Shown: positions 32,001 through 56,000 of the stretch, piece after piece
How positions within the stretch are numbered: position 1 is the first letter of the stretch
How the letters are laid out: each line of letters opens with the position of its first letter
DNA from: an uncultured Actinomycetes bacterium
Lineage (GTDB): Bacteria > Actinomycetota > Acidimicrobiia > Spongiisociales > DATADW01
DNA: 64,000 bases
NCBI GenBank assembly: GCA_963824995.1
Contig: CAWGRK010000003.1
Coordinates: 1-64,000, forward strand
Direction: 5' to 3'
Position numbers: made by a program

Positions 32001-35000
32001 GTGGAGGAACCCCATCGTCGGGACGAGACCGACCACTCCGGAAGCCTCCTTGCGGGCCTCGGCGAAGGTGGCCGCCTCGATCAAGGGAGCACCTCTGCGA
32101 TCTCGTCACTTCGTCCGGCCGCTCCGGCGATGAGCCGCAGCGCGGCGACGAACTCATCGAGCACCGCCGGGTCGGCGGAACGAACCGCATCGATCTGCGC
32201 GGTCACGGTCGCCATGTCGCCCCTCGACACCGGGCCGGTGAGAGCTGCGGCTGCGCCACCTCCGAGGCTGTGGGAAACGACCTTCTCCACCAGCGGCCGG
32301 GCAACCTCGGGATCGACCCCGGCGCCTTCGAAGAGCCGATCGGCCAGCCAGAGCGCAGCCACCACCGCATTCGAAGCAACCGATGCCGCCGCGTGGTAGA
32401 GCGCCCGATGATCATCACCGAGGTTGAAGGCGGTCATTCCGAGATCGGCGGCCAAACCCTCGAGCACTTCGTGAAGGTCGGGGTTCGTTGTGGTTATCGC
32501 CACGGCCGAACCGGCGAGCGCTCGAGCTCCCCGGTCGGGGTCAGGGAGGCTCTGCAGGGGGTGGAACGCACCTACGGCTATCCCCCGCGAGGCAAACGGC
32601 TGCAGAGCCGAGACCGGGACGGCCCCACTGAGATGGACGGCACCGCCCACATCGGTGACCCTGCCGCGCCACGCTTCCTGCCACTTCTGCGATGGCCTCA
32701 TCGCCCACCGCTACCACCACCAGGTCCGCCGGCGGTAGCGGGCTGTCCGGTCCAAGAACCTCTGCCCCGAGCCGCTCGGCAGACCGGGTGGCGTCGCTGC
32801 GTCCCACCACTCCCACGATCCGGTGCCCGGCTTCGGTCAACGCAATACCGAGCGACATCCCGGCGCGCCCCGGACCGACGAGGATGACCTTCATCGCGCC
32901 GGACGCTAACGCAGGGCCTGGCTTCCCTCGGGCGCCGGATGCCCCGTCCTACGCTCCCCGAGGATGCGAGGCGGAGCCGCTTTCTTGGTCATGGTCCTCG
33001 TGGCCGGGTGTTCGGCTGCTCCGGGCGACACCACGCAGGAGCGACCTTCGGCCACCGGCGCTCCACCCAATACCACCGCGGCACCGGCGACGACCACTCA
33101 GAGCCTGACGACCACCAACTCCTCGGTGGCCCCCTCCACGACGCTGACCGTGCCGGCCCGACCGGATCCGCCTCTGCTGAGGAGAGAGGTCGAGGTGCAC
33201 CGTGGCGCACGGACGGCGCTTTACACCCTCCCCGCCGACCTCCTCTTCGACAGTGGTGAAACTGAGCTCCGCCCTGGCTCCACCGTGATCATCGGAGAGG
33301 TGGCTCGGGATATATCCGGACGTTTCCCCGGCAGACCGATCATCGTCCGCGGCCACACCGACTCGGTGGGAGGGTCCCGCGCAAACCGGGAGCTCTCGAG
33401 ACGCCGAGCTGAGACTGTCGCCGACATCCTTGATCAGCAGGGAGGCATCGAGTCGATCACGATCGAGGCGTTCGGCGAGCTAAGCCCACGCTCCTCCAAC
33501 GACAACGCCGCAGGGCGTGCCCTGAACCGCCGTGTCGAGATCCTCGTGCGCACTAGGCGCTGACGGCGCGTGAGCGAGCAACGATTCCCCGGAAGCCTGC
33601 GACTCGGGGGAGGGGGAATGTTTCACTCCAGAAGCGCGATCGGCGCGCGTCGAGCGCCGTTGGGAGCTTGGGGCTCCCCCTACCCGCCGCTTCGCAGCGC
33701 CCTTCCCCCGTTCGGGGGGACGGAGAGAATGGGCGGCGAGGCGCACCGCGGGGATTGCCCGCCGTCCGCCGTCCGCCGTCCGCCGTCTCGGTTCACCTAG
33801 CCGCCATTCGCTCGGGCACCAGTTCGGTGAGGAGGTCGATCATCGTGTCGGCGTCCCTGATGGCGGCGGCACCGGGGTCGTTGTTGAAGTAGACGAAGAC
33901 TTCCTCGGCGTCACTTCTGGCGATGCGCTCCGCCCAAGGGCGGAGTCGGTCGCGCCCGTACTCCCACGAACCATCGAAATCGGCGCGGTGAAATCGCATG
34001 TAGAGCCAGCCACCGGTCGGTCTGTCTCGTGCGATCGGGCCCGGGTCGGCCCAGACCAATGCCGCCATGTGGCGGTCGAGCAGCTCGTGGACCTCGGGCA
34101 CGTCCCACGAGGGGTCGCGGAACTCGAGGGCGGGACGCATCCCGGAAGGGAGAGCCTCGAGCAGACCGGTCAGCCTGTCGATGTCGAGCTTGAAGGTGGG
34201 TGGGAGTTGGAAGAGCACGGGACCGAGCCTCGGGCCTAGCCCCAAGGCGCGCTCCCAGAGGCGTTGGACCGGCTCTCCGGGATCGACGAGTCGCCTCACG
34301 TGGGTCAGGTACCGGCTTGCCTTGACCGTGAAACAGAACCCCTCGGGAGTTTCCTCGCGCCAGCGCTCGAAGGTGCCCCGCTCGGGGAAGGCGGTAGAAG
34401 GTGTTGTTGACCTCGATGGTGGGGAACCGTCGAGAGCACACCTCGAGCCACCGCCGTTTGGGCAGGTCGTCTGGGTAGAAGGTCCCTCGCCAGTCGTCGT
34501 ATTGCCAGCCGCTGGTCCCGACCCGGATCACCCGGGTGATTCTGGCGTCGGATCAAGTGGACTTGAAGGCTCTCCCTATCGCCCGGAACGGTGTGCCCAT
34601 CGTGTAGAGCACCGAGCGGATGGCGGCGTTGTGCTTGATGTACCCGGCGTAGCGCCACTGGCGGCGCTTGTCGAGGATCGTCGCCGCAAGCTCCGGCTCG
34701 GCAGTCGAACCGAAGTGGGCCGCCAGCGAGCGGAGAGTGTGCAACCAGATCTTGTCCTCCATCCGACCCGCACCCATCATGAAAGCAAGCTCATAGAGAG
34801 GGTCGCTGGGCCGGATGAGCACCTGCACCTGGGCGATCGTCCCGCCTTCGGCCTCGAACGAGCTGAAGGTCACCCACCCGGCGAACAGATGTCCCTCCGG
34901 GGTCATGAAGGTGAAGGAGACGTCGTCGGCATAGAGCACCATCACTCCGGTGGAGAGCGTCATGGGGCCCTGGACGGTGTTGATCGTGCCCACTTCGCCC

Positions 35001-53000: not shown

Positions 53001-56000
53001 GCGGCGGCTCCACCGGCTTGAGATGACACTCGTCGTCACCTGGCGCACCGAGGAGTTCCCCCCCGGACATGGGCTGCGGAGGGTCGTGGCCGCCGCTCAC
53101 CGACAGGGTGGTGGCGTGCTGGTCAAACTCGATCGTCTCGACTCCGCAGCAGTGGCGCAGCTCGCATCGGCGTTTCTCGGCGATGACGTCGATCCGGGAA
53201 TCGTGGACATCGTCTTCGCCGAGACCGAGGGGCTCCCGTTCTTCGTGGTCGAGTACCTGACCTCGATCAAGGAAGGTCGGCCGGAATCGATCGACGTCCC
53301 CGACCTCCTCGACGCGAGGCTCTCCGGGCTGAGCGACATCGCCCGGCAGGTTGCGTCGGCTGCGGCGGTGATCGGACGGTCGTTCGATGTCGAGTCACTT
53401 CGCGCCGTCTGTGGTCGGAGTGACGACGAGGTCGTCACCTCTCTTGAAGAATTGCTGCGACGGGGGGTGGTGAGGGAGCCGGCAGGTGTGGCGTCCGGCT
53501 ATGACTTCTCCCACGAGTTGCTCCGGCGTCATGTGCTGGCGTCGACGTCCCTGGCGAGGCGCCGCCTGCTACACCAAAGGACGGCTGACGTGCTCGTCGG
53601 GCGCCACCGTCGAGATACAGAGGCGATGGCGGCGCAGATCGGATTTCACCTCGAGGCGGCCGGCAACGATCTGGAAGCGGCGGATCAGTACGCCTTGGCC
53701 GCGGGTCGGGCAGCGGCGCTGTATGCCAACCGCGAGGCGCTCGACCTGTACCAACGATCTTTGGCGTTGGGGCATCAGGATCCGGCAGCGCTCCACGCAG
53801 CCATCGGCGACCTCGAGGCGCTTGCAGGGGCATACGGCTCGGCGGTGAGCTCGTACCAGACCGCAATCGCCCTGGGCGGACCATCGGCGCGGGGTGAGCG
53901 GCGGCTGGCTCAGGTGTACTCCTATCTAGGGGCCTGGGAGGTGGCGGAGGCCCACATGCTTCAAGCCGAGAAGCTGCTGGCTCCTGACGATCCGGAGCTG
54001 ATGACGGCGGCGGTGGAGCACGCTTTGATCGCCCACAGGAGCGGAGACGACGAGCGTGCCGGGGAACTGGCGGGAGCAGCCTTGGAAGCGGCCGACGCCG
54101 CCGCCGGTCCCGGCGACCGGGCACGGGTCAACAACCTGCTCGGGATCCTCCGTCGGAACGACGACCCCGAGCTTGCCCTCGAATACCTCACGACCGCCCG
54201 TGAACTGGCGGTCGAATCAGAGGACCCCGGTCTGCTTGCCGGCGTCCTCAACAACCTGGCGCTGGCATATCTCGCCGATGGTGAAGCGGAGAAGGGCATA
54301 GAGGCGGCCGAGCAGGCGCTCGACGTGTACCGACGAATAGGGGACCGCCACCGTGAGGCGGCCGTTCACAACAACCTCGCCGACATGTTGCACAAGACAG
54401 GACGAGGCGAGGCGGCCATGGCCCACCTCAAACAGGCAGTGGCGATCTTCGCCGAGGTCGGCACCGAGCCCGGTGCCTACGAGCCGGCAGTGTGGAAACT
54501 CGCCGAGCTATAGAACCCCTTTGGCGTCACTCAACGCGGTCCCGGCCCCAGAAGTGACGCCAAAACGGATCACTTTCCCTTGCGAAGTGCGCTGATCAGT
54601 TCCTTCTTGTTCATCGAGGAACGGCCCGGGACCCCGACCTTCTTGGCTCGGGCATAAAGCTGGTCCTTGGTCATGTCGGCGTAGTTCTTGGCCTTGCCGC
54701 CTCGCTTGCCGGCTACCGATGCCGGCGTGTTGGCGATCCGGGCGGCCTTCTTCTTGCTCATCCCCTGTTTGCGCAGAGCCTCGTACCGTCGGTCGTCTTG
54801 AATCGTCGGCCCGTGGTTCTTGGCCTTACCCTTACCTTTGCCCTTGGGAATCCGGTCACCTCCTCGTGGTGCCTGCTCAGATACCCCCCACCGGTTCGGG
54901 TCAACCCTCGGATGCGCACAGGAGGTCGAGTGCCTCGGAGGCGGTGAGCCCAGGCGCCACCTCGGCGTCGGGCCACACCTCGACCAGCGGCACCAGCACG
55001 AAGCGACGCTCGGCGGCGCGGGGATGGGGAAGGGTCAGCTGGGCGCTATCCCGCCGCATCCCCTCCATCACGACCAGATCGAGATCGAGCGTGCGGGGGC
55101 CCCACCGCTCCACCCTCACCCTCCCGTGGTCGTCCTCGACCGCCTGCAACCGGGCCAGAAGCTGTTCCGGTGACAGGTCGGTTTCGAACACCACCACCGC
55201 GTTGAGGAAGTCGCCCTGCTCCGGTCCCCCCACGGGAGTCGTCTCGTGGAATCCGGAAACGGCCACCACCTCACCCAGATGCGCGAGAGCGGCAAGCGCC
55301 GAGCGGAGCGTTGCGTTCCGGTCGCCGAGATTCGACCCGAGCGCCACAGCAGCGCGTGTCAGCGCCACCGCCTGATCGTCACCGACACGTCGGAGAACGG
55401 CACCGCGATCGGTGCTTCGGGTTTGTGCACCGTTACCTCCACATCCCGAACCCGCTCGTCTTCCAACACGAGTTGCGCAACGCGCTCCGCTACCCGCTCC
55501 AGCAGATTCCATCGCTCGCTGGCGACCAGGTCGTGGATCCTCTGGGCAAGAGATCCGTAGTCCACCGTGTCCTTCAACCGATCGCTCTTCCCTGCAGCCG
55601 ACAGGTCGATCTGAGCGACGACATCGACCATGAACTCCTGACCCTTCTCCTGCTCTTCTGGGTGGACCCCGTGGTGGGCCTGCACCCTGATCCCGCGGAG
55701 GCGGATCTCATCTGCCGACGGCGGTGCCATTGCGGCGGCGGGTGCCGTGGCGGCGGGTCGTAGGCGGCCTGCCTGCTCAGGATGAACAGCGACGACTTGG
55801 TCGACGACCTTCGCCCGTACCGTCGCCAGGTCGGTACCCGACGCCACCAGGATCTGCGCCCCCACACCATCGCCCTCGCGGAGCAGTCCGAGGAGGATGT
55901 GCTCGGTCCCGATGTGGTTGTGCCCGAGTGCCAACGCCTCTCGGAGCGACAGTTCCATCACCTTCTTTGCCCGCGGGGTGAACGGGATCTCACTCCCCTC

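Follow-up and report, generated by a model that had tools for sequence, protein, structure and literature searches.

In Bacillus subtilis, the RsbT-RsbU pair is an example of a PP2C phosphatase that is activated by a separate protein, which binds its N-terminal domain and linker (PMC12143880). In the stressosome, several paralogous RsbR sensors are described as feeding one output (PMC11821858). The account in PMC6482189 of HsbR-HsbA (Pseudomonas aeruginosa) and CrsR-CrsA (Shewanella oneidensis) is of an input-PP2C-kinase/anti-sigma protein that acts on a STAS protein, with the sigma factor, RpoS, encoded elsewhere. A PAS sensor and a fused STAS domain are reported for Rv1364c (PMC12143880).

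The locus described here lies in the window, a 64,000-nucleotide stretch of contig C3 from an uncultured Actinomycetes bacterium, and combines an array of membrane-protein genes with a phosphatase-kinase gene, g00753. The tails of the array proteins correspond to the beginning of a GAF domain, and g00753 encodes the rest of it; one signalling switch is therefore probably shared by many sensors. No paper describing such a split-GAF sensor array was found. An earlier survey had reported the array and its tie to a PP2C/STAS module, and both were retained; its description of the family as unclassified, its 240-aa forms and its cytoplasmic hairpin were not.

Extent and integrity of the array

Four intact copies were used as tblastn queries. 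Twelve paralogous stretches were recovered between 37877 and 51316, all on the minus strand, as expected for the tandem array of twelve receptor-like membrane genes that the survey had proposed; the genes span 37868-51376 (Table 1). A whole-genome search of the 2.91-Mb assembly returned 14 pieces, all within C3:37877-51217, and no match in the rest of the assembly.

Table 1. Coordinates of the array copies and flanking genes in the window.
Feature	Position	Strand	Remarks
BTAD(partial)-AAA_16-TPR protein, 808 aa	52087..54513	+	divergent
c12 sensor paralogue	50207..51376	-	in-frame TGA at 51011-51013; start uncertain
c11 sensor paralogue, 382 aa	49062..50210	-	intact; query 'B' of most searches
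c10 sensor paralogue, 386 aa	47905..49065	-	intact
c09 sensor paralogue	46732..47908	-	full-length; one frame change near 47417-47445
c08 sensor paralogue	45562..46735	-	full-length; one frame change near 46443-46508
c07 sensor paralogue	44390..45561	-	full-length; two frame changes (about 44795, 44587)
c06 sensor paralogue, 412 aa	43149..44387	-	intact
c05 sensor paralogue	41879..43030	-	full-length; three frame changes, two gone if bases 42361 and 41912 are omitted as in metagenome contigs
c04 sensor paralogue	40750..41798	-	two frame changes, that at about 41403 gone if a base is omitted as in a metagenome contig; start not fixed
c03 sensor paralogue, 391 aa	39492..40667	-	intact
c02 short form, 154 aa	39052..39516	-	in-frame deletion; four helices to FPT motif, then directly the GAF-start tail
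c01 sensor paralogue, 389 aa	37868..39037	-	intact; last of the array
g00753, 535 aa	36104..37711	-	incomplete GAF, helical linker, SpoIIE/PP2C, HATPase_c_2 (RsbW-like kinase)
STAS protein 1, 118 aa	35767..36123	-	anti-sigma antagonist type
STAS protein 2, 120 aa	35397..35759	-
262-aa protein	34553..35341	-	soluble; conserved last gene of the cassette

Five copies are intact (c01, c03, c06, c10 and c11) and five carry one to three frame changes each (c04, c05, c07, c08 and c09). The separate 240-aa short forms of the survey are fragments of full-length copies cut by such breaks, with the remainder in another frame. These forms and the frameshifts are assembly damage, since rpoC of the same genome is in eight pieces (seven frame switches within 3.75 kb) and independent metagenome contigs differ from the window by only three indels, all three on frame junctions and each removing the junction. 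The survey's own caution about indel errors splitting copies was therefore right. That the array is a decaying family with about half of its members pseudogenes is highly improbable: its 13.5 kb do hold nine frame changes and one in-frame stop, with the frame junctions away from long homopolymers, but both the rpoC density and the metagenome indels speak against decay, as do counterparts in the genus mates, which are often in full-length open frames (those assemblies are also broken in places). Such counterparts, 66-97% identical, were found for 10 of the 12 copies in at least four of five genus mates. Orthologues of c11 were 87-92% identical in four of the five, c02 was 89-96% identical in all five, and in G001, G002, G003 and G005 those of c12 lay in open frames 395-396 aa long, a figure that is not a gene length. 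The nearest true paralogue inside the window was 39-63% identical; the same comparison also gave within-window values of 89-99% for c04, c08 and c09, but there the joined pieces matched themselves. c08 has c11 as its nearest relative (63%), and the genus mates have no close orthologue of it.

Paralogues shared 31% identity over the membrane part and 66.5% over the C-terminal part (computed for 38 of 55 pairs among the 11 full-length copies; pairs lacking an 80-residue alignment in both parts, including all c07 pairs, were dropped). Judged from these alignments, the paralogues are old and conserved.

Family membership and topology of the membrane module

The array copies gave only sub-threshold scores to Pfam HisKA_7TM (18.2 and 23.6 bits against a cut-off of 28.6), and an NCBIfam search gave no match. 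Homology to the N-terminal part of GAF-HisKA_3-HATPase_c kinases covered 85-90% of the query, with E-values down to 7.5e-36. Among longer proteins there were 116 matches to the module at E<=0.001, mostly with HisKA_3 and HATPase_c and often also GAF; other outputs behind it were a cyclase (P0056), SpoIIE/PP2C (P0058) and a STAND NTPase (P0006). By homology, then, the family is no orphan; it forms the input module at the N-terminus of GAF-HisKA_3 kinases. The absence of a kinase domain from the array proteins, as noted in the survey, was upheld.

Hydropathy gave ten hydrophobic helices per array protein. Residues 270-294 and 298-313 are hydrophobic throughout, and the loop charges agree with ten membrane helices and both ends inside. 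Both observations speak against the proposed cytoplasmic pair of 50-60-residue helices resembling a kinase dimerisation hairpin. A seven-helix core (helices 2-8) lies within this total of ten. The first 'long helix' of the earlier reading is interrupted at residues 259-262 in a new AlphaFold2 model of c11; this model had a mean pLDDT of 79.3, with 40-73 past residue 250 and values below 50 at 366-382. An array protein would comprise an extra N-terminal helix, the seven-helix core bundle, a hydrophobic helical hairpin and a cytoplasmic tail ending in the first helix and strand of GAF.

The closest folds were receptor- or rhodopsin-type seven-helix bundles, at a Z of 11.7 that is in the chance range for helical bundles. 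The proteins are polytopic and JGI names 7 of 120 listed homologues 'MFS family permease', as transporters or other non-signalling membrane proteins might be named. Such a role is most improbable: Pfam and NCBIfam gave no transporter family match, the same module stands N-terminal to kinase, cyclase, phosphatase and NTPase outputs, and the fold matches, with the reservation given, are of the receptor type.

A GAF domain divided between two genes

The C-terminal roughly 30 residues of the array proteins correspond to roughly positions 3-32 of the GAF profile, and g00753 alone matches Pfam GAF at positions 53-133 only, which places the gene boundary inside GAF. From the profile alignments, a GAF domain begins in these residues and is continued in g00753, a feature missed by the first reading. 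The tail is present in 12 of 12 window copies, the short c02 included, and 44 aligned family members keep it as far as one shared end point. GAF positions 1-52 are consistently missing from g00753 homologues.

Natural fusions join the two halves. The module stands in front in 11 of the best 150 representatives of the g00753 N-terminus, and in G008, G019 and G024 module and phosphatase share one open frame. In P0058, residues 299-490 align to c11 174-369 and residues 522-859 to g00753 31-371 (56% identity); other single-chain fusions are 52-62% identical over the N-terminal 145 residues of g00753. Alignment A3 is collinear. Eight of nine PP2C fusions have a full-length Pfam GAF-family match that starts at the tail helix (P0421 371-491 covers profile 3-133 and P0438 408-547 covers 1-133, for instance), as do the kinase fusions P0024 and P0066. 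The kinase domain is part of the chain in P0466 (947 aa) and P0481 (1008 aa). As the halves form a single chain in related bacteria, the gene here would have been cut inside GAF and its membrane half multiplied.

Conserved neighbourhood

The flanking genes were as described earlier: GAF-SpoIIE-HATPase_c_2, two STAS genes, a terminal protein and an upstream BTAD-AAA-TPR gene. In g00753, SpoIIE (E 1e-49) and HATPase_c_2 (E 5.8e-21) were matched, and none of the PP2C and kinase motif residues varies among 40 homologues; judged by these residues, its catalytic apparatus is kept. The best solved relative of this part is Mycobacterium tuberculosis Rv1364c (PDB 3ke6, E 1e-31). Searches of Pfam, NCBIfam and PDB with the 262-aa protein gave no match; it is DUF1990-like by language-model features alone. 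No DNA-binding domain was detected in the 808-aa protein, and the locus has neither a sigma factor nor another evident target.

The order regulator-array-phosphatase-STAS-STAS-262-aa gene is conserved in all five genus mates. The cassette is also present in two other families (G009 and G019) and recurs in 80 further loci of Actinomycetota and Chloroflexota; with the natural fusions, this recurrence bears out the functional tie to the PP2C/STAS module. Neighbourhoods were counted in 70 further loci that offered 1500 nt or more of upstream sequence; kin loci among them are not independent, and many are from MAGs. In 45 of the 70, a tail-bearing gene on the strand of the phosphatase gene ends no more than 1200 nt upstream of it (gap 400-1200 nt in 14 of these); such a gene lies farther upstream in another eight and elsewhere in the locus in eight. 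Two STAS genes lie downstream in 68 of 70 and a 262-aa homologue in 62. With these queries, nine of the 70 had no membrane-module gene within 9 kb and the phosphatase N-terminus is not longer there, so the phosphatase may work without a neighbouring partner.

Histidine kinases (HisKA_3) work as dimers. HisKA_3 kinases are the commonest carriers of the module, and the copies could be kinase-less decoys that pair with them, damping or redirecting two-component signalling, with the partner-switch neighbourhood coincidental. This is very unlikely, given that 14 of 14 own-genome matches are in the array and no module-bearing kinase was found with the query used at E<=1e-10 in this 85%-complete assembly, that the array is maintained beside the phosphatase gene across families and phyla, and that module-phosphatase fusions occur.

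Predicted contact and proposed mechanism

Complex prediction with c11 310-382 and g00753 1-145 gave an ipSAE of 0.46 (runs 0.46, 0.49 and 0.45, sharing at least 90% of contacts), against 0.00 for the best of three controls, with a partner pLDDT of 61-63. Of 157 solved complexes, 116 reached the complex-score mark, as did 2 of 215 mismatched pairs; both mismatches but only 18 of the 157 did so with scores of 0.60 or under, and halves of a split domain may also score through likeness to solved GAF structures. The prediction weakly supports docking. The predicted disorder of c11 366-382 fits a piece that needs a partner and, equally, a non-functional remnant. When the natural fusion P0421 was modelled with AlphaFold2, pLDDT stayed below 50 over residues 385-403, where the first strand would be expected, and only two-residue bridges formed, with no canonical GAF sheet; the GAF fold is thus unconfirmed even in a single chain.

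On balance, we lean towards the array supplying 11 full-length and one short input subunit to a single output enzyme, docking by GAF completion. A membrane subunit would dock on g00753 and supply the missing GAF piece. A signal, putatively a ligand, acting in the diverged membrane part would pass through the linker to the balance of phosphatase and kinase activity and so set the phosphorylation state of both STAS proteins. The STAS proteins or the kinase domain would in turn control the release of a target, either one encoded outside the locus or the conserved 262-aa protein.

The subunits might instead signal to the phosphatase-kinase without completing GAF, the tail being an inert leftover of gene fission; contact, if any, would be via the conserved RFRRS..ERQQ.KW and RYRLYDIDR loops or other cytoplasmic parts of that kind, or membrane recruitment alone would suffice. 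The neighbourhood and fusions show linkage and are silent on the mode of contact, the fused chain also models without a confident GAF sheet, and the complex score is weak. We nevertheless regard an inert tail as rather unlikely, because all copies and aligned members keep it to one end point, c02 is so well conserved with little beyond four helices and the tail, and g00753 homologues consistently lack what it would supply.

Comparison with known systems

GAF-HisKA_3-HATPase_c sensor kinases of Actinomycetota and Chloroflexota (uncharacterised P0007, P0024, P0027 and P0069) have the same N-terminal membrane module, itself distantly related to HisKA_7TM (PF16927). They share with the array the motifs FPxGR, RQQxKW, RYRLYDID and DRRFxRxxYDA and the run-on into GAF; unlike them, the window proteins end about 30 residues into GAF, have no kinase and form a 12-gene array. 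Single-chain module-GAF-SpoIIE(-HATPase_c_2) proteins (P0058, P0421, P0438, P0466, P0481 and others, all uncharacterised) are collinear with c11 followed by g00753. These provide one sensor per enzyme in one polypeptide, whereas the window has the break within GAF and twelve versions of the sensor half.

RsbT-RsbU is a precedent for activation of a PP2C by a separate protein that acts on the N-terminal domain and linker of the phosphatase. The sensors of RsbT-RsbU and the stressosome have no sequence relation to the array proteins, belong to cytoplasmic complexes and share no split domain with their output. HsbR and CrsR resemble g00753 in having input domain, PP2C and kinase in one protein with STAS partners, but they take their input through a receiver domain that a phosphorelay supplies, whereas g00753 has a partial GAF, putative separate membrane partners and two STAS genes. 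Rv1364c is alike in its sensor-PP2C-kinase order and, unlike the array with g00753, is a soluble single chain.

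Gene boundary within the GAF domain

The sensor family that makes up the array at 37868-51376 (minus strand; copies c12 to c01 in transcription order) ends at a constant point, where a helix is followed by a short hydrophobic stretch with the consensus ..DLDxLxxELLAVVxxTxxPxxASLWLR. Residues 37-116 of g00753, the phosphatase-kinase gene 3' of the array, correspond to Pfam GAF profile positions 53-133 only. The GAF fold is built on a central antiparallel sheet, with the first and the last helix packed behind it. The first 145 residues of g00753, used as a query, retrieved 11778 proteins at E<=0.001, and in 11 of the best 150 of these the membrane module lay directly N-terminal. 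A GAF-family profile was matched over its full length in eight of nine PP2C fusions, from position 1-5 and with a start equivalent to approximately residue 352 of c11 (see table). The GAF start was placed in the same way in the kinase fusions P0024 and P0066. In alignment A3 the fused chains read as sensor protein plus g00753, with a short variable linker between them; one fusion, P0058, was 56% identical to g00753 over 341 residues, and P0466 and P0481 also carried HATPase_c_2. Since GAF is complete in the fusions and partial in g00753, the last approximately 30 residues of every sensor copy correspond approximately to GAF positions 3-32, and g00753 supplies the rest. From GAF topology, we take positions 3-32 to be the first helix and strand. 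The tail was present in 12 of 12 window copies, and the whole profile was covered only when the sensor tail and the g00753 half were combined.

Structure prediction was applied to one pair, comprising c11 residues 310-382 and g00753 residues 1-145, both supplied as alignments. This gave an ipSAE of 0.46 (runs 0.46, 0.49 and 0.45), graded as 'weak support', a mark that split-domain halves may also pass through likeness to solved GAF structures. The best of three controls was 0.00 and partner pLDDT was 61-63; 90% or more of the contacts were common to the runs, and the output gave scores with no interface. Of the solved complexes, 116/157 passed the mark, as did 2/215 mismatched pairs; at values of 0.60 or below it was passed by only 18/157 and by both mismatches. 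An AlphaFold2 model of the P0421 fusion had a mean pLDDT of 82.8; its membrane part and PP2C were well modelled, residues 385-403 were below 50 and no GAF sheet was formed. PDB GAF chains matched the profile weakly (E 0.002-0.75).

Read-through of the c01 stop codon into g00753 was also considered. The g00753 start lies 156 nt beyond the c01 stop (37712-37867) and shares its frame; a second in-frame stop is present at 37724-37726, and simple read-through was rejected. Separately, the best matches of the g00753 N-terminus included proteins of 1200-3950 aa (P0359, P0381, P0397 and others) with 6-20 repeats resembling its GAF segment.

Features of the cassette and of fused relatives (G, genomes; P, database proteins; empty cells, no value)
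Feature	Location	Strand	Length	Description
BTAD-AAA-TPR gene	52087-54513	+		Divergent flank of array
c12, sensor copy		-		One in-frame TGA, 51011-51013
c03, c06, c10, c11, sensor copies		-		Intact (three-frame reading)
c05, sensor copy		-		3 frame changes (three-frame reading)
c04, c07, sensor copies		-		2 frame changes each (three-frame reading)
c08, c09, sensor copies		-		1 frame change each (three-frame reading)
c02, short copy	39052-39516	-	154 aa	In-frame form
c01, sensor copy	37868-39037	-		Intact
g00753	36104-37711	-	535 aa	Partial GAF, helical linker, SpoIIE/PP2C, HATPase_c_2
First STAS gene	35767-36123	-		
Second STAS gene	35397-35759	-		
262-aa gene	34553-35341	-	262 aa	Soluble protein
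Single open frame	G008 C167		664 aa	Module + phosphatase
Single open frame	G019 C49		866 aa	Module + phosphatase
Single open frame	G024 C92		946 aa	Module + phosphatase; TAG within match
P0421	371-491			GAF profile 3-133
P0438	408-547			GAF profile 1-133
P0463	292-423			Full-length GAF-family match
P0481	461-586			Full-length GAF-family match
P0491	391-525			Full-length GAF-family match
P0507	376-489			Full-length GAF-family match
P0487, P0435				Full-length match with GAF_3
P0466				Exception: profile match begins at position 54

Composition of the array and origin of the frame breaks

The tandem paralogue array of the survey's finding was recovered by tblastn, with four intact ORFs as queries, as 12 stretches, all on the minus strand; every one of the 14 matching pieces in this genome lay inside C3:37877-51217. 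The separate 240-aa short forms of the same finding proved to be ORF fragments of full-length copies, produced by frame breaks. The short copy c02, the product of an in-frame deletion, comprises the first four helices through the FPT motif, followed directly by the last ~25 residues of the sensor family. AT skew was 0.17-0.31 in 37868-51376 (A over T on the plus strand); outside this region it ran from -0.13 to 0.25 and was mostly close to zero. This strong A excess is consistent with minus-strand genes coding for hydrophobic proteins. From c12 to the 262-aa gene, neighbouring genes overlapped by 4-25 nt or were separated by 0-156 nt, an operon-like layout. A sequence scan returned no promoter-like sites (1.8 in shuffles) and 10 terminator-like sites (11.3 in shuffles), none above chance. 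In five soil-metagenome runs from two studies just 6-8% of the sampled words were present, and no RNA run was among those listed.

The frame breaks in the array copies are most likely assembly errors. The assembly is 85% complete in 17 contigs. Its rpoC (G000:C10:157211-160958, part of which is overlapped by locus L001) was found as eight pieces in four alternating open frames, with seven frame switches within 3.75 kb. With so many single-base indels, any frameshift or 'pseudogene' of this genome needs independent reads. Contigs from four soil-metagenome runs were compared with the array and differed by three indels only, each one base fewer, at 41403, 41912 and 42361, all at frame junctions of c04 and c05. 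Without these bases c04 becomes an open frame of 349 aa, and three pieces of c05 become one 240-aa frame ending at the usual family C-terminus. These contigs were short, with a depth of ~2-10 and partial coverage of the array; no informative contig reached the c12 stop, the junctions of c07, c08 and c09, the first c05 junction or the second c04 junction. Joints between metagenome contigs and the array, with 21-35 matching letters on the shorter side, are probably due to paralogues or other organisms. Genus-mate counterparts were 66-97% identical, and the matches often lay within full-length open frames. As the breaks are likely assembly errors, it is reasonable to speak of 12 genes, one short and the other 11 full-length. 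In the flanks, some of the longest ORFs also appeared fused or overlapping (Clp_N and FolB in one ORF; a 408-aa ORF overlapping ftsH), again probably because of indels.

Sensor family and predicted topology

Searches of the copies against Pfam and NCBIfam gave no match above cut-off. HisKA_7TM (PF16927) was matched by c11 (18.2 bits) and the C half of c09 (23.6 bits), below the gathering cut-off of 28.6, and the remaining window copies gave no match to it in Pfam. The homologues P0001 (30.2 bits) and P0071 (30.3 bits) exceeded the cut-off, which indicates a distant relation to HisKA_7TM and not membership by the curated rule. Near-length homologues numbered 2824 at E<=0.001 among 8000 scored. 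Names were rare and read 'hypothetical', 'uncharacterized membrane protein' or, from a single source, 'MFS family permease'; where the organism was given, it was an Acidimicrobiia or Actinomycetota MAG. An MFS permease identity was not supported, as no MFS model was matched at E<=0.1 (Pfam) or E<=0.01 (NCBIfam).

The whole module also forms the N-terminal part of longer signalling proteins (116 matches among longer proteins). These were mostly HisKA_3+HATPase_c kinases, many with GAF; HisKA and HATPase_c, present on these homologues, were absent from every window copy by Pfam. The module was also fused to a class III (adenylate or guanylate) cyclase domain (P0056, 713 aa), to GAF and an nSTAND1 NTPase (P0006, 1268 aa) and to a SpoIIE output (P0058), and occurred two or three times per chain in P0001-P0005. 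The membrane module is a general-purpose input.

An AlphaFold2 model of c11 from a 44-row alignment contained 12 helices (mean pLDDT 79.3, pTM 0.68). The pLDDT was 84-96 up to residue 250, 40-73 beyond, and <50 at 366-382. Hydropathy and loop charges gave ten hydrophobic helices with both termini inside; K+R counts were 2, 1, 2, 5, 4 and 7 for the inner segments, by our reading of charged helix ends plus loops, and 0, 1, 0, 0 and 1 for the outer ones. The cytoplasmic, kinase-like helical hairpin proposed by the survey was not supported, since residues 270-294 and 298-313, taken as its distal half, are entirely hydrophobic. A fold search with VIA-align matched residues 24-259 (helices 2-8) to GPCR, rhodopsin and TMEM87A bundles with Z up to 11.7, where Z under ~13 may reflect a common helical-bundle arrangement. 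The best alignment (Z 11.7, rmsd 4.1) covered 201 residues within model residues 26-258.

Phosphatase-kinase, STAS proteins and flanking genes

The PP2C domain of g00753 was matched by SpoIIE (Pfam, E 1e-49). D175, D178, D193, D311, D362 and D363 were invariant in 40 sequences and are presumably the PP2C metal ligands. The kinase domain was matched by HATPase_c_2 (E 5.8e-21) and by SpoIIAB chains (E 8e-15), with anti-sigma F factor models below cut-off. The closest solved relative of the enzyme part was Rv1364c (3ke6, E 1e-31). TIGR00377 scored 57.9 bits for the first STAS protein, above cut-off, and 47.8 bits for the second, below it. Both contain a serine within a ..NS(T/G)G.. stretch, which we assume to be the phospho-site position after SpoIIAA/RsbV. 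A scan of the ORFs around the cassette, at 28-34.5 kb and 51.4-63.2 kb, found no sigma factor or other switched target.

The 262-aa protein had no PDB sequence match at E<=1 and none in Pfam or NCBIfam. Its sole likeness was by language-model features, to clusters with 10% DUF1990 members (score 0.97); the DUF1990 papers found concern a plant envelope protein and a proteome list. This protein may serve as a target or an effector of the switch.

In the BTAD-AAA_16-TPR protein, the BTAD match opened at residue 5 with profile position 35. The gene is divergent to the array, and the same start point was seen in genus mates. A winged-helix DNA-binding domain was not found in the protein, and the two upstream plus-strand ORFs matched no family. 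A SARP/AfsR-type activator was not supported, there being no winged helix and an incomplete start of BTAD; the protein may instead be a STAND-type signalling NTPase and not a DNA-binding activator. Housekeeping genes adjoin the cassette on both sides: FolB, a pterin-binding enzyme (folP-like), GTP cyclohydrolase I and FtsH at 55359-60132, and pantoate ligase, an OmpA-family gene and DUF72 at 31209-34527.

Conservation across genomes

The gene order BTAD gene, array, g00753, two STAS genes, 262-aa gene and DUF72 gene was found in 5/5 genus mates (G001-G005), except that DUF72 was not in the stretch examined of G003. The same order occurs in other families of the order, in G009 with two sensor copies and G019 with three. 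Strong g00753 matches (a piece at E<=1e-100) were obtained in ten published genomes (G000-G005, G008, G009, G019 and G024) and in two unpublished ones, G010 and G021. The membrane module was adjacent or in the same open frame in all ten published ones. Module and phosphatase were adjacent on C117 of G010 and on separate short contigs in G021; no other result given here depends on these two.

A scan of one genome per species gave 80 loci with g00753 relatives (53-62% identity) in Acidimicrobiia, Thermoleophilia, Nocardioidaceae, Kribbella sp. VKM Ac-2569, Ktedonobacterales, Anaerolineae, Chloroflexia and others. Four relatives (L025, L032, L076 and L094; 55-60%) were in MAGs labelled Acidobacteriota or Gammaproteobacteria, through either binning error or transfer beyond Actinomycetota and Chloroflexota. 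In the 70 loci whose upstream sequence reached 1500 nt or more, up to 9 kb of it was surveyed with seven sensor queries. A tail-bearing sensor gene ended at most 1200 nt upstream on the same strand in 45/70 loci (at most 400 nt in 31). It lay farther upstream in 8/70 and only downstream or on the other strand in 8/70; none was found with the seven queries in 9/70. As to whether phosphatase genes lacking a neighbouring membrane gene carry a GAF start of their own, their upstream open frames (25-103 aa) were no longer than those of the other class, which speaks neither for nor against it. One to eight copies were present within the 9 kb, so large arrays are not restricted to the window's genus. 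Downstream sequence sufficed for the same count in 70 loci; two STAS genes followed the g00753 relative in 68/70, and a 262-aa homologue came after these in 62/70. A BTAD-AAA-TPR homologue was present in 44/80.

Divergence of the sensor copies

Window paralogues averaged 31% identity on the N-terminal side of the RYRLYD motif and 66.5% on its C-terminal side. The 11 full-length copies form 55 pairs, of which 38 entered these means; a pair was left out unless each part aligned over 80 residues, and all pairs with c07, in which the motif was not found, dropped out in this way. Ten copies, c02 included, had counterparts of 66-97% identity in at least 4/5 genus mates. For c04 these were 53-83%, and c08 had no counterpart above 60%. 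Orthologous counterparts in genus mates place the duplications before the genus. The copies were retained; their membrane halves diverged and their output-side halves did not. The short copy c02 was at the same place in 5/5 genus mates (89-96% identity), which marks it as a kept gene, possibly a signal-blind competitor or anchor.

Proposed wiring and comparison with known systems

PP2C/RsbW/STAS switches, GAF and kinase-type membrane input modules are known kinds. What stands out is the wiring, in which a sensor domain is cut between genes and the membrane half amplified. No published description of a split-GAF sensor cassette was found in the partner-switching, SpoIIE/PP2C, 7TMR-DISM and split-GAF literature, as judged from listings with few subscription journals. 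The HisKA_7TM papers found there dealt with archaeal or eukaryotic kinases.

In the proposed chain, each membrane protein would dock on g00753 by completing the GAF domain. The state of the sensor would pass through GAF and the helical linker (g00753 residues ~117-150) to the phosphatase dimer, and the fused RsbW-like kinase would counteract the phosphatase on the two STAS proteins. This chain is modelled on the fused relatives and on a sensor-linker-PP2C model (PMC12143880). The most far-reaching reading, with somewhat less than an even chance of being right, is that a single phosphatase-kinase has its incomplete GAF made whole by one membrane receptor at a time, drawn from a dozen different ones that each carry the missing helix and strand. 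Choice and integration would then occur through competition for the shared half-domain, with c02 taking part as signal-blind competitor or anchor.

For most bacteria other than Bacillus, how signals reach partner-switching phosphatases is still an open question. The present cassette, conserved in two phyla of soil bacteria and found in a cultured Kribbella (L051), has an input that is physically separate from its enzyme and present in up to a dozen copies. It raises the questions of whether a signalling domain can be shared between proteins by fragment complementation, and of how many membrane receptors funnel into one switch. It also provides a predicted role for a large unnamed membrane-protein family, and would tie the conserved 262-aa protein to the same pathway as the sensor array.

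HsbR and CrsR have the same output order as g00753, comprising input, PP2C and kinase/anti-sigma domain, and their sigma factor RpoS is encoded elsewhere (PMC6482189). That the cassette locus has no sigma gene is thus no obstacle. If the reading of a shared half-domain is true, the cassette would represent a many-inputs-to-one-output wiring, widespread in soil Actinomycetota and Chloroflexota, that is unlike fused sensors, phosphorelays and stressosome-type complexes.
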